Positions 1 to 4,578 of a stretch of DNA of 4,578 nucleotides are shown here, one piece after another; the first letter of the stretch is position 1; the number at the start of each line of letters is the position of its first letter. The DNA is from a virus (lineage: Duplodnaviria; Heunggongvirae; Uroviricota; Caudoviricetes). The stretch lies in the IMG/VR virus record IMGVR_UViG_2531839474_000004; one strand, 5' to 3'. The notes under the pieces were generated by a model. That model saw only the letters and a list, made by a program, of their open reading frames with translations. It did not search any database and had not been told where the DNA came from. Position numbers and translations under genes: made by a program.

Positions 1-1253
1 GGCCCGTCACCAAACCTGACCTGCAAATGCTGAAACATCCCCTGAACCTGTGTGGCATCTTTGGGGTCAAGAAAGGTCAGTCCGGTGATGAGCGCACCAT
101 CTGTACCCGGGAACCAGCCATAACTGTTTGTCTCAATAATGCTCACCGGCCCCAGACGAAAACGGATTTGTGTCTCCCCCGGGTCACCCTTCGGTCCCTG
201 AGGTCCGGTAGCCCCCACCGGGCCAGACGCACCTGTTTCCCCTTTCGGTCCCTGTGGGCCTGCCGGGCCTGCTGCCCCGGTATCTCCCTTTGGCCCCTGT
301 GGACCTGTACTTCCCGTCAAACCGGTCTCTCCCCGCTCTCCCCTGTCGCCTTTCGGCCCCTGCGGGCCTGCCGGACCTGTATCTCCTGCCGGCCCCCGTT
401 CACCGGTTGCCCCTGCCGGACCGGTGTCACCACGCTCTCCTTTATCTCCCTTCGGCCCCTGAGGACCCGCGGGACCCGGGTCACCCTTTGGCCCGGCTGG
501 TCCCACCACGGTGGGGATTCGGTTTACGGCGTCTTCCGCCGCTATTCTGCTTTGTTCCGCTGACTGTGCGCTTTCTGCTGACTCCCGGGCTTTTTCTGTT
601 GCGGTCGTTGCATCCCTGGCTGCATTACCGGCTGCACTTTCTGCCGTCTTTTTTGATAACTCAGCATCTGTTGCACTTTGTAATGACTCTCTGGCTTTTT
701 GAGCAGCCTCTGAGGCCGAGGACGAGGACGCTTCCTCTGACTTCTTTGCTGAGGCTGCACTTTCTGCCGCCTGCCGGGCTGACTCCGATGCATCCCCTGC
801 TGAAGCGTCAGCATTTGCAGCGCTCTTTTCTGCCTGACTGGCTGATATGCCGGCATTCCTCGCTGACGTCTCCGCCTCTCCGGCATTCTTCTTCGCCTCC
901 TCTGCGTGACGCGCGGCCTCTTCCACCATTTGTTCAAAGCGACGCAGTGCCTCCGGACGGGCATCATCCTCCGTCATTGCGCCGAGGAAATCATTCAGTG
1001 TGCCCGGCTTTGAGTCCTCATACACTGTGATAATCCCGGCATGTGATGGCGGGAACCCCTCCACCAACAGAATAACGCTGTACTGACCGTACTCAACGTC
1101 CATGCTGTAACGCCCGGCTTCATCCGGATTTTCAGAGGCCACCGTGTTCACCACCACCGTGGCGCTGTTACGTCTGGCTTTCAGTTGAATGGTGCAGTTC
1201 TCTACCGGTTTTCCTGTCCCGTCTTTCAGTACACCTGAAATCTTTACTGCCAT
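1..1253 (-). CDS. stf: Side tail fibre protein (Stf-like), N-terminal 417 codons; the CDS continues beyond the window start, with no stop codon in-window
   Basis: Hand translation of the minus strand from ATG at 1253..1251 gives [112 protein letters not shown]..., which closely matches the N-terminus of lambda Stf (orf-401) as I recall it. The frame stays open for 417 codons to position 3, with 2 bases left over. It is not in the ORF track because that track needs a stop codon. It lies 64 nt downstream of lom, as in lambda. A weak SD-like GGGGTG sits upstream of the ATG. Confidence 0.85.
171..503 (-). repeat. Collagen-like Gly-X-Y repeat tract inside stf: 37 uninterrupted triplets, codons 251-361 ([111 protein letters not shown])
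   Basis: Seen directly in the minus-strand translation. On the plus strand it appears as reiterated ggncc/cctttcggtccctg-type motifs. The GGN-CCN codon periodicity also explains why several other frames here lack stops and produce spurious ORFs. Confidence 0.85.
630..769 (-). repeat. Pair of exact 17-nt direct repeats (plus-strand ggctgcactttctgccg at 630..646 and 753..769) inside the Ala/Ser/Glu-rich shaft region of stf; the 123-nt offset keeps them in frame
   Basis: Direct reading of the sequence. On the coding strand the repeat is cggcagaaagtgcagcc, encoding the A-E-S-A-A motif twice (..[11 protein letters not shown].. and ..[11 protein letters not shown]..). Shorter copies of the ctttctgc core recur at about 569, 636, 759 and 827. 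Confidence 0.8.
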
Positions 1254-1261
1254 ATTCACCC

Positions 1262-1290
1262 CACAAAAAAGCCCGCCTGAACCGGCGGGC
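1262..1290 (-). terminator. Rho-independent terminator downstream of lom (minus-strand orientation)
   Basis: Minus-strand reading is GCCCGCC-ggttca-GGCGGGC followed by TTTTTT: a 7-bp all-GC stem (plus 1271..1277 pairing with 1284..1290), a 6-nt loop and a U-tract (complement of 1265..1270). It sits 28 nt after the lom stop and 11 nt before the stf ATG. Confidence 0.65.
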
Positions 1291-1317
1291 TGTCATAACA
1301 CTGTGTTACCTGGCTAA

Positions 1318-1917
1318 TCAGAATTTATAACCAACACCCACGATGAAACCGTCAGTGCGCCAGTCACCACTGCCGGAACCTTCATAAGCGACATCAATGG
1401 CCACGGATTCAGTCGGGTTAAACTGCACGCCAGCTCCCCACGCCAGAGACGTGTTGCTGTGGCGACCGTCATCACTTCCGGTCAGCACATCGTGCGTTTT
1501 CCCCTTGTTATCAGTTACGCGGAGATAATCCCCGGAAAAAGTCGACACACGGCTGTAAGCCACACCCGCCATCGCATACGCGCTGAACCATTCATTCACG
1601 CGCACAGACGGCCCCGCCATTACGCTGAACCAGCGGTTACGAACGGAATCTTCATGCCAGCGGGTATCGCTGTAACGGGTCAGCTGGCGATTCTTGTCTC
1701 CTGCATAGCTGAATGACGTCACCAGCCCCAGTGTGTCCGTAAACTCATAACGGTATTTCACGTTAATCCCGTTCAGATCATCACTGCCGGGAACGTTCGT
1801 CGAGGCATGAAGATACCCCGCGCTCAGCGTGGACTGATGTTCAGACGCCCATGCAGGCGCACCGGATACGGCCAGACAAATGGCTGCGGACAAAATTGCT
1901 GCACAAACTTTATGCAT
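1318..1917 (-). CDS. lom: Outer-membrane protein Lom (Ail/Lom/PagC/Rck/OmpX family, 8-stranded beta-barrel); a phage moron / lysogenic-conversion gene
   Basis: 199-aa ORF. The N-terminal signal peptide MHKVCAAILSAAICLAVSGAPAWA has an A-W-A cleavage motif. The C-terminal stretch ...VDVAYEGSGSGDWRTDGFIVGVGYKF, with its terminal aromatic F typical of OM beta-barrels, matches the lambda Lom C-terminus as I recall it. It sits between J and stf, as in lambda. An SD-like GAGGT lies 4 nt upstream of the ATG. Confidence 0.93.
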   Translation of the reverse strand: MHKVCAAILSAAICLAVSGAPAWASEHQSTLSAGYLHASTNVPGSDDLNGINVKYRYEFTDTLGLVTSFSYAGDKNRQLTRYSDTRWHEDSVRNRWFSVMAGPSVRVNEWFSAYAMAGVAYSRVSTFSGDYLRVTDNKGKTHDVLTGSDDGRHSNTSLAWGAGVQFNPTESVAIDVAYEGSGSGDWRTDGFIVGVGYKF

Positions 1918-1922
1918 AATTA

Positions 1923-1927
1923 CCTCT
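1923..1927 (-). promoter_or_regulatory. Shine-Dalgarno-like element for lom (GAGGT on the minus strand)
   Basis: Minus-strand sequence gcgaGAGGTaattATG immediately upstream of the lom start codon at 1917. Confidence 0.4.
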
Positions 1928-1941
1928 CGCTTTTCTGCAAT

Positions 1942-1966
1942 AAAAAAGGCGTCATTCCTGACGCCC
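1942..1966 (-). terminator. Rho-independent terminator between J and lom (tJ-like)
   Basis: Minus-strand reading is GGCGTCA-ggaa-TGACGCC followed by TTTTTTATT: a 7-bp stem (plus 1948..1954 pairing with 1959..1965), a 4-nt loop and a U-tract (complement of 1942..1947). It starts 22 nt after the J stop codon. Confidence 0.6.
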
Positions 1967-1987
1967 TTTATTGGGGTTATAAATATT

Positions 1988-4578
1988 TCAACGAATACTG
2001 ATGCCGGAAGCAGCTTTTTTGGTCACAATCACCGTACAGTCGGTGATATTGCCTGCCCCCTGATTGCCTTTCTGGAAAATCTTAAACTCCAGAGTGACGC
2101 TACCACCACCACTAGGCATATCAATAACTGCACTGTAACTACCGGGAATGGCCCCTTTAGTTTCTCTGGATGCGATTAATACGCCGTTTTTGCGAACTTC
2201 AAAACCATAACCCGTGTATCGCGTGCCTCCTGGGTTATTTCCGCTCCCCGGATCGTCATACGCTATACCGTTAAAAATAATGGGCGGAATAATAATCTGA
2301 CGGTCAAAGTTATGATCATCGCTGATGGTGACTGTAACCGTACCGTTTGGTGTTTCCGTGTTACCCCACGTACCGACTTTTTTCGGGAAGGCTTTTGATA
2401 CAGCTTTAACGAAATCCCCTCTGACCTGGGTCGCCTCCAGCATGCCCTTAATCGTACAGTTCTGGTTAATCGTGACATTGTTGAGCGTTCCTGAGTTCGC
2501 ATTCACACTGCCACTGATATCCGCATTTTTAGCGGTCAGCTTTCCGTCTGATGTCAGGGAAAATACCGGAGGACTGCCACCGCTGGTAATGGTGGGGGCC
2601 GTCAGGCGCTTCAGGAACACGTCGTTCATGAATATCTGGTTGCCCTGCGCCACAAACATCGGCGTTTCATTCCCGTTTGCCGGGTCAATAAACGCGATAC
2701 GGTTAGCGGCAACCAGAAACTGGCTCAGCTTGCCTTCCTCCGTGTCCTCCATGCTGAGGCCAAGCCCCGCGACATAATGTTTGCCGTCTTTGGTCTGCTC
2801 AATTTTGACGCCCCACATGGCATTCCATTTATCACTGGCGTCTTTCCACTCTTTCGAAAACTCCTCCAGTTTGCTGGCGTTATCCTCCGTCAGCTCGACT
2901 TTTTCCAGCAGCTCCTTGCCGAGATGGGATTCGGTTATCTGGCCTTTGAAAAAATCCAGATAACCTTCCGCATCATCGCTCGCCCGACCGACGGCCTCCA
3001 CAAATGCCGATTTACCAACGGTATTCACGCTGCGGATGTAAAAGTAATAATCATAACCCGGCTTAATATTGCTACTGGCAGCTATCCAGTACAGCGCCGT
3101 ACCAAGATAACGCGCGCTGGTTTCAACCTGCCTGATATCCGCAATCCGCGTTTCCGAGAACCAGAACTCAAACTGCACCGTCGGATCATAAACCGCAAGA
3201 TGCGGTGTGGCGGTTATCTGAAAATAGCCCGGCGTCAGCTCAATCCGCGACGGCGCTGCCGGTGCGGCAATCCGGAATGATACCGACGCCGGATCACCCT
3301 GCTGCCCCCAGGCATTTACCGCCCTGACTGTCAGCCTGTAGTTCCCTGGCGCCAGCTGCCTGAAGCGGTATGTGGTTTCCGTCGTCCGGGCCGTGCTGAC
3401 CAGCCGCTCACTGCCGTCATCCGCTGCCACGGTCAGACGAAGCAGAAAGCTCACCCCCTTCACCACCTTCGGCGTGTCCCAGCGCGCCAGCACCTGATAT
3501 TCCCCGCTGTCGGCGGTGACTTCGGCGGTCAGGTGCTGCACCGCTGGCGGCGTGACACCATTCACCGTGCCGCTCTGGTCGCCATCAAAGTGCGCCCCGT
3601 TATCCACGATGGCCTCTTTTTCCGGTACATGCTGCACGGCGGTGATGGCATACGTGCCGTCATCGTTCTCACGGATACTCACGCAGCGGAACAGGCGCTG
3701 GCGCAGCGTCGGCAGCTTCAGCCCCCATACGCTGTATCCGGCAACGCCGTCAGGAACACGGCTCACTTTTACCTTCACGCCGTCGGTGACGGACTGGACC
3801 TCCACGCTGACCGGATTACCACTTCCGTCAACCAGGCTTATCAGCGTGATACCGGAGGATGGCAGCGTGATTTCACGGTCGAGCGTCAGCGTCCGCGTCT
3901 GGCTGTTCACCGCCAGCACACGCCCGCCGATGCTGATACCCGCATAGTCATCATCACAGATTTCAATGACATCGCCCGGTACATGGCGAAGCCCTTCAGC
4001 ACCCACGCTGAAGTCCACGGTCTGCGTTTCCAGCAGCTCCGTTTTAATCAGCCACAGCCCGGCGCGGTGTGCCTGCCCCCGGCTGGTACAGCCAAAAGCA
4101 TCCATCTTCGTGACGTTACGACCGTAACGGGCAATGGCCTGCGTGTCCTCCACAAGCTCTGTCGCCGTCTCCCAGCCGTTATCCGGGTCAATCCAGTTCA
4201 CCTCAACGGCATTATGGCGGTCCTTCAGAGCGCTGAAGCTGTAGCGGAACGGCGCGCCATCATCCGGCATCACCACATTACTGCGGTTATAGGTCCACAC
4301 CTTATCCGATGGCCGGTCCTGCACGAACGTCAGCGTCTGCCCGTTCCATACCGGCATACAGCGCATCGCCGAGCAGAAATCACTGAGCACATCCCACGCC
4401 TTGCGCTGTGTGGTCAGGTACGCATTACAGGTGATGCGCGGCTCCGTGCCGCCAAAGCCGTCCGGCACCGACTGGTCGCAATTCTGGCCGATGACATACA
4501 GCGCCCATTTGTCCACATCCGCCGCACCAAGACGTTTCCCCATGCCGTAGCGCGGGTGGGTCAGCATATCCCACAGAC
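1988..4578 (-). CDS. J: Tail-tip host specificity protein J (central tail fibre), C-terminal ~860 codons; the N-terminal part lies beyond the window end
   Basis: The 859-aa track ORF (1988..4567) stays open upstream to the window edge (..LWD before [28 protein letters not shown]..). Over most of its length the translation closely matches lambda gpJ as I recall it (e.g. [101 protein letters not shown]). Stop codon TGA at 1988..1990. Confidence 0.95.

Follow-up and report, generated by a model that had tools for sequence, protein, structure and literature searches.

EPclA, the product of ECs2717, is a collagen-containing protein of 437 amino acids (aa) in total, with a PCoil domain of 116 aa and a Col domain of 111 aa (Ghosh et al. 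2012, PLoS One 7:e37872, PMC3368898). Recombinant EPclA (rEPclA) is a trimeric dumbbell with a hinge, as determined by circular dichroism, analytical ultracentrifugation, size-exclusion chromatography with multi-angle laser light scattering, and electron microscopy (Ghosh et al. 2012, PMC3368898). Its collagen triple helix melts with a Tm of 42 C and its PCoil, a trimeric coiled coil, at about 50-52 C, while its PfC domain is a trimerisation module that renucleates the triple helix (PMC3368898). The Col domains of the alleles are reported to be 63-144 aa long. In Ur-lambda, residues 1-94 of the side tail fibre (Stf) comprise a six-stranded sheet and a helix, and twelve copies (four trimers) make up a collar that clamps around the junction between gpV, the tail-tube protein, and gpM; the side fibres make adsorption 10-30-fold faster and are not required for plaque formation (PMC12617516). 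The stretch of DNA analysed here, referred to below as the window, is 4,578 nucleotides (nt) of the IMG/VR virus record IMGVR_UViG_2531839474_000004. Its positions 1-1253 (minus strand) very probably represent a collagen-containing stf gene of a lambda-like Escherichia coli prophage, from codon 1 to codon 417 of about 437. The predicted gene and the domains of its product are as follows.

1-1253, minus strand: predicted stf of the EPclA / phage-434 type (open frame, Pfam matches, identity to 434 and ECs_2717, ratio of non-synonymous to synonymous substitution rates, dN/dS)
972-1253, minus strand: collar or tail-attachment domain, aa 1-94 (phmmer match to PDB 9E7M chain Ta)
855-1253, minus strand: PfN, aa 1-133 (Pfam PF08400, phage_tail_N)
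504-854, minus strand: PCoil, an Ala/Ser/Glu-rich low-complexity segment, aa 134-250 (composition)
171-503, minus strand: collagen triple-helix domain (Col), aa 251-361 (regular-expression run and Pfam PF01391)
3-170, minus strand: PfC, aa 362-417, C-terminal trimerisation knob and presumed receptor-contacting tip (Pfam PF06820)

The minus strand contains 417 stop-free codons from the ATG at 1253-1251 down to base 3, and codon 418 begins at bases 2-1, at the window edge. The closest in-frame stop upstream of the ATG is a TGA at 1295-1293. With the base composition of the region, a single frame would stay open over 417 codons by chance with a probability of about 2e-7. The original prediction, made from the letters and a list of open reading frames (ORFs), had placed a gene in this frame, and translation confirmed it from the ATG at 1253 to the window start; the C-terminal protein letters quoted there were accurate, and the gene is indeed absent from the ORF list because it runs off the window edge. 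Three Pfam families matched the translation well above their curated cut-offs, which, together with the open frame, supports a real gene.

The N-terminal module matched PF08400 over aa 1-133 (model positions 1-133 of 134, E-value 6.8e-69, 230.5 bits against a cut-off of 26.6), and phmmer aligned residues 1-94 of PDB 9E7M chain Ta with residues 1-94 of the window Stf (E-value 4e-51). PHROGs placed the protein in tail-fibre families (E-value 1e-135). The identification as a side tail fibre, already proposed from the letters, stands on this PF08400 N-terminus, the match to the Ur-lambda collar and the position after J and lom. Next come a shaft rich in Ala, Ser and Glu and a collagen-like tract, both as predicted. 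The PCoil segment (aa 134-250) consists of 31% A, 19% S and 12% E, and with 116-117 aa corresponds in length and position to the PCoil of EPclA. The Col domain is an uninterrupted run of 37 Gly-X-Y triplets (aa 251-361, 111 aa; regular-expression search), which also matched PF01391 (Collagen; E-value 3e-18, 65.8 bits against a cut-off of 27.2). Pro occupies position X in 18 of the 37 triplets and charged residues account for 22% of the tract; Pro at X and charged residues are likewise reported for the EPclA collagen (Ghosh et al. 2012, PMC3368898). A 45-nt unit of 15 codons, encoding five Gly-X-Y triplets, is present twice at window 218-307, the two copies being 78% identical, and such repeats could underlie the length variation of Col domains.

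The C-terminal part of the window protein matched PF06820 (Phage_fiber_C) from aa 363 to 417 (E-value 2.1e-27, model positions 1-55 of 64). The original prediction spoke of the start of a distal domain; the domain was identified as PfC, of which more than a start is present, namely 56 of about 76 residues. The homologue search with the PfC segment in the protein collection gave only 47 matches, 48-102 aa long, most of them fragments from contig edges, with identities of no less than 67%, and no distant relatives.

The closest relatives have the same type of fibre. With the side tail fibre of phage 434 (UMO75288, OL657226), the window Stf shares 93% identity over 417 residues without gaps. Four of the 31 differences lie in the PfC tip (V370, Y378, G383 and M406), and the window allele has its own combination of these few variable tip residues. 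The 434-type gene is itself identical in lambda h434 hybrids and in many Stx1 and Stx2 siphophages. Identity to ECs_2717 (EPclA) amounts to 390 of the 417 residues (94%), again without gaps, and seven of the 27 substitutions fall within the 56 PfC residues of the window. The domain order of EPclA, its PCoil and Col lengths and an identity above 90% were all found, the total of 437 aa through an inferred contig join only. The biochemistry of EPclA (trimer, triple helix, coiled coil and hinged dumbbell) should transfer to the window Stf.

Prevalence differs between the two parts of the gene. The N-terminal module (window 900-1300) occurs in 4737 of 5426 complete E. coli genomes (87%), the collagen shaft and tip (window 1-900) in 715 of them (13%), with a median of 10 copies per genome. 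Several hundred phage records, mostly of Stx-converting phages, contain the shaft and tip too. The window copy itself is 93-96% identical at the DNA level to the best matches in complete genomes and phages, and is a moderately divergent allele of a widespread, biochemically characterised gene type.

The original prediction also recognised the N-terminus of lambda Stf in the first ~115 residues. BLASTP against lambda orf-401 found 104 of the 117 N-terminal residues identical (89%) and no significant alignment after residue 117. Against StfR of E. coli K-12 (b1372), 109 of the 123 N-terminal residues were identical (89%), the last of them residue 117, and no significant alignment was found beyond that point. 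At the DNA level, blastn against lambda gave two main blocks, window 4578-2432 (94%) and 1445-904 (86%), and an additional stretch of 59 nt inside lom. The first block covers the J fragment except for roughly its last 140 codons; the second runs as a single unit from the lom 3' end across the terminator to stf codon 117. Past 904, towards position 1, blastn found no match to lambda DNA. These alignments place the mosaic junction with lambda at residue 117, at window position ~904. Since phage 434 is collinear with all 4578 bases of the window at 95.0%, the junction is an old, fixed module boundary and is not peculiar to the window sequence. The mosaic relation to lambda proposed in the original prediction is therefore real, with its junction at ~904, but it does not reflect a local event.

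The stf gene is under purifying selection. Between 55 and 64 of the 84-94 substitutions relative to 434, UTME-12 and a further relative, L005, fall on codon position 3, and the overall dN/dS is 0.16-0.19 (Nei-Gojobori method; against 434, UTME-12, L005 and ECs_2717). The synonymous substitution rate (dS) is uneven along the gene, 0.32-0.44 in residues 1-117, 0.24-0.30 in the collagen and 0.05-0.10 in PCoil and PfC, which points to recombination among EPclA alleles inside stf. The highest dN/dS was observed in PfC (0.3-1.1), from 2-7 changes only; the value against ECs2717 is about 1, with very small counts.

The selection data bear on the possibility that stf is decaying in a defective prophage and is an intact-looking but disused remnant. 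Most lambdoid prophages of enterohaemorrhagic E. coli (EHEC) are defective and some EPclA copies have lost their frame (Ghosh et al. Table 2, PMC3368898); with a median of 10 copies per carrying genome, single copies may be redundant, and the prophage surrounding the window is obscured by gaps and a chimeric scaffold. However, the frame is intact over 417 codons, dN/dS of 0.16-0.19 indicates purifying selection, the Gly-X-Y register is unbroken over 37 triplets, and the same gene is found in the viable phages 434 and phi330. Decay thus appears unlikely, and a functional side-fibre gene remains the preferred reading.

Another explanation is that the product serves the bacterium, as a collagen-like surface adhesin or virulence factor carried as prophage cargo, comparable to Streptococcus Scl or Bacillus BclA. 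Binding to host matrix or cells is known for collagen-like proteins of other pathogens, the collagen tract of the window matches the BclA collagen-like region (1wck, E-value 2e-9), the gene type is over-represented in attaching-effacing pathotypes, next to type III effector genes, and the role of EPclPs for E. coli itself is stated to be unknown by Ghosh et al. This is nevertheless very improbable, as the window Stf has no signal peptide and no anchor, its N-terminus is the tail-collar domain of lambda Stf, and its gene is part of the late tail operon, flanked by lom on one side and the end of the structural module on the other. Moreover, the related EPclB was located at tail ends by immuno-electron microscopy and is essential for Sp5 infectivity, and the reported expression is tied to phage induction (per Ghosh et al.).

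That the overlapping plus-strand ORFs at 27-563 and 254-1030 are real genes can be practically dismissed, although they are long (178 and 258 aa) and open in three homologues, and the lambda record annotates a similar antisense ORF, orf206b, inside orf-401. Neither has a Pfam match, and in three relatives they show 27-53 non-synonymous against 4-9 synonymous codon changes, an excess explained by their location at position 3 of the stf codons. When the codon order of stf was shuffled, the longest antisense open run was 172 +/- 51 codons; 6% of the shuffles gave runs of at least 258 codons, and 38% gave runs of at least 178. Likewise, lambda orf-401 has antisense open runs of 235 and 290 codons, one of which overlaps orf206b. 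The plus-strand ORFs are shadows of the GC-rich, Ala/Ser/Gly/Pro-rich stf; substitution pattern, lack of Pfam matches and codon shuffles thus bear out their earlier description as artefacts. The lambda orf206b (206 codons, 5148-5768 of the lambda record L003, antisense to orf-401) is probably the same kind of shadow ORF, since the antisense runs of orf-401 are as expected from its codon make-up.

Returning to the side-fibre gene, its missing end was sought in the parent assembly. In reverse complement, the window matches positions 5340-9917 of scaffold JH659570.1 (L004; assembly GCA_000261145.1) exactly; its contig sits there between a gap of 1865 N and one of 100 N; the runs of N in the scaffold are at 1039-1138, 1666-1765, 3475-5339 and 9918-10017. 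The contig past the 100-N gap starts with 90 bases identical to the window's end, which looks like the k-1 overlap of a de Bruijn assembler. Merging the two contigs gives a Stf of 437 aa ending ...GDGPWQDVKGLDEVGSDTGRSGE, in which PF06820 is complete (positions 1-64 of 64). The extension past position 1 suggested in the original prediction was thereby obtained as a full 437-codon stf in the merged sequence, subject to the placement of the contigs. Judged by this merged sequence, about 95% of stf is present in the window, and the 20 missing codons were most likely lost only through the contig end: the gene seems truncated because the window is a short contig ending inside a multi-copy repeat. 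Many database relatives of the tip are likewise 'partial' contig-edge fragments, which fits a multi-copy gene that breaks short-read assemblies.

An origin outside E. coli, considered in view of best identities of only 93-96%, was rejected, since the potB-potA-pepT flank of the scaffold is 99.8% identical to E. coli chromosomes; this evidence is subject to the same doubt about scaffold placement that is described below.

By analogy with the characterised fibres, a working model can be proposed. Three Stf chains would form one fibre, in which residues 1-94 would fold into a collar domain attaching to a lambda-like tail. The Ala/Ser-rich segment of aa ~118-250 would form a trimeric coiled coil, and the 37 Gly-X-Y triplets a collagen triple helix connected to it by a flexible hinge. 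PfC would trimerise, nucleate folding of the triple helix and make up the distal knob, the presumed point of contact with the cell surface. Such a fibre would speed reversible adsorption, as in Ur-lambda, and the central tail fibre J, of the OmpC-using 434 type, would make the essential contact. The attachment to its own phage tail and the role in adsorption are those we infer from Ur-lambda. Trimer, triple helix, coiled coil and dumbbell shape come from the work of others on a 94%-identical protein, and frame, domains, homology, junction position, purifying selection and prevalence from the present analysis.

Several points weigh against this interpretation. The join completing stf depends on a 90-nt overlap that lies in a segment invariant among the copies of a multi-copy element. 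The reconstructed 437-aa Stf has no exact match in the protein collection, so that the join across the 100-N gap is without independent confirmation. A second J fragment on JH659570.1 (1766-3474) overlaps the J of the window for 1709 nt at 95.4% identity; two J copies at this identity indicate that contigs of different lambdoid prophages were strung into one scaffold. Contig placement in JH659570.1 is therefore unreliable, the neighbouring contigs may belong to other prophages, and the NleG and potB context of the scaffold was not relied on. The AlphaFold2 monomer model of a 100-aa Col-PfC fragment (P0003) was too poor to show the PfC fold, with a mean predicted local distance difference test score (pLDDT) of 49.4 and a predicted template modelling score (pTM) of 0.38, from a shallow alignment of 13 close relatives and for a domain that is an obligate trimer. 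For EPclA-type proteins, Ghosh et al. themselves describe the phage role as strongly suggested and not as proven. Finally, 4.6 kb is too little to tell an inducible prophage from a defective one.

The signals and genes surrounding the predicted stf in the window, and the genes found beyond it in the scaffold and in related loci (L001, L002 and L007), are listed below.

1259-1262, minus strand: GGGG resembling a Shine-Dalgarno sequence, 6-9 nt before the start codon of stf
1265-1291, minus strand: intrinsic-terminator-like hairpin and T-run between lom and stf (scan)
1318-1917, minus strand: lom, Ail/Lom outer-membrane beta-barrel, 434-type allele (Pfam, E-value 8.9e-122)
1988-4578, minus strand: J, central tail fibre, final 862 codons, cut off at the opposite window edge (five J-specific Pfam domains)
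10170-10439 of L004, 3669-3938 of L002, 4669-4938 of L001, 10828-11097 of L007: ORF of 89 aa with a full Phage_fiber_C domain
10542-12077 of L004, 291-3491 of L002, 8711-10702 of L007, 2856-4217 of L001: effectors of the type III secretion system (T3SS)

The record of phage 434 annotates a ribosome-binding site at the position matching the GGGG at 1262-1259, and a terminator at the position matching the hairpin between lom and stf. In the window this hairpin (1291-1270) has 8 pairs, 7 of them G-C, with an adjoining T-run. A sigma-70 promoter scan of window 1-2100 found none, which is consistent with the expression of stf from the phage late transcript, and Rfam at gathering thresholds gave no match in the whole window.

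The genes J (1988-4578), lom (1318-1917) and stf (1-1253) are all on the minus strand, in the J-lom-stf order common to lambda, 434 and Sp14. The Lom of the window is 96.5% identical at the aa level to that of 434 and 47.5% to that of lambda, and is lambda-like only in its last ~40 codons (82%). The J fragment is 97.4% identical to J of 434. Compared with lambda J, it shows at least 92% aa identity to about residue 700 of the fragment and 36-50% afterwards, while its last ~160 codons (window 1988-2470) are 94-100% identical to 434 J. The receptor-binding domain of J is therefore of the h434, OmpC-using type; J of phage 434 is described as targeting OmpC. A second mosaic junction of the window is thus located inside J, at ~2432.

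In the scaffold, 434, UTME-12 and Sp14, the 89-aa ORF starts 1 nt after the stf stop codon. It encodes its own complete PF06820 domain (E-value 1.7e-35) after a Cys-rich N-terminus, CGCGKHDDC. No Tfa family was among the Pfam matches of the scaffold copy, which, up to an E-value of 0.1, matched only PF06820. A downstream tfa chaperone gene, which the original prediction had proposed looking for, was thus not what was encountered: the gene next to stf in the relatives is this PfC paralogue and not a lambda-type Tfa. The records name the ORF variously as a chaperone (434), an alternate tail fibre tip (AU6Stx1) or hypothetical. The EPclB gene of Sp5 is likewise followed by a gene of the same type, ORF68, which is listed as non-essential, outside the nine essential morphogenesis genes, and has been suggested to be a reservoir for tip variation. 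A database protein of 92 aa, P0038, consists of the N-terminal 40 residues of the 89-aa paralogue and the last 52 residues of the Stf PfC, joined in register; its sequence suggests recombination between the two PfC copies.

In all relatives examined, type III effector genes follow closely on the fibre genes. There are two NleG genes in the scaffold; Sp14 has EspJ and TccP, and UTME-12 a T3SS protein. Phage 434 itself, a classical laboratory phage, has NleC genes and NleH- and NleB-like fragments.

The paralogue raises the possibility, doubtful at present, that the PfC knob and the 89-aa protein form an exchangeable tip system altering binding, either by recombination between PfC copies or by docking of the small protein onto the end of the fibre, and that the side fibre might provide lambdoid siphophages with a second contact, to the essential protein BamA. 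The latter is conceivable because the window PfC is ~90% identical to that of BamA-dependent short-tailed Stx phages. Stx2 phages reported to be short-tailed use BamA, the BamA-binding part not being assigned to PfC; in the records of such phages PfC is ~90% identical to that of the window. BamA does not inhibit plaque formation by the siphophage phi330, which carries a PfC fibre and is OmpC-dependent; this is expected if the side fibre is non-essential, and so decides nothing.

The discovery value of the window is small, because hundreds of phage records already annotate the gene type, 715 of 5426 complete E. coli genomes carry it, and the biochemistry of a 94%-identical protein was worked out in 2012; nor does the window add new leverage on the binding target of the collagen-type side fibre or on the role of the 89-aa paralogue. 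It does illustrate that genes running off contig ends escape ORF lists, that the multi-copy stf is a typical breakpoint of short-read assemblies, so that many database entries are partial, and that fibre genes of low complexity and high GC content give rise to long antisense shadow ORFs, which should not be annotated.

Among the known systems, the Stf of lambda (orf-401/orf-314 in lambda PaPa) and of Ur-lambda (PDB 9E7M and 9MGH) shares with the window Stf the collar of residues 1-94 and the J/lom locus. Lambda Stf has a long Ala/Ser-rich shaft, a T4 gp37-like OmpC-binding tip and a 194-aa Tfa chaperone. The window Stf, in contrast, has a collagen helix and a PfC knob of ~76 aa, and in its relatives the 89-aa PfC paralogue replaces Tfa; the gp37-like tip and Tfa gene that mark lambda Stf proper were thus not found with it. 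At the tail end it is expected, on the likeness of the collar, to act like Ur-lambda Stf, as an adsorption accelerator. StfR of the cryptic prophage Rac in E. coli K-12 (1120 aa) has the same N-terminus and the same junction at residue 117, but beyond the junction its shaft and tip are lambda-like and its chaperone is TfaR, all unlike the window Stf.

EPclB (ECs1228 of Sp5, L0121 of 933W, and phi24B; short-tailed Stx2 phages) is also composed of PfN, PCoil, collagen and PfC, but unlike the window Stf it also contains a second collagen domain and a Pf2 repeat and reaches 645 aa. Its role is that of an essential fibre, in a podophage that uses BamA as receptor, whereas the window Stf would be an accessory side fibre beside a siphophage J. 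The closest correspondence is with EPclA (ECs2717) of prophage Sp14 in E. coli O157:H7 Sakai, in which PfN, PCoil, Col and PfC follow one another as in the window Stf, and with the Stf of phage 434, which has the same architecture, the same 437 aa after the join and the same J-lom-stf context. The gene type is thus already known, being that of phage 434, of the lambdoid prophages of O157:H7 and other EHEC and of enteropathogenic E. coli (EPEC), and of EPclA.

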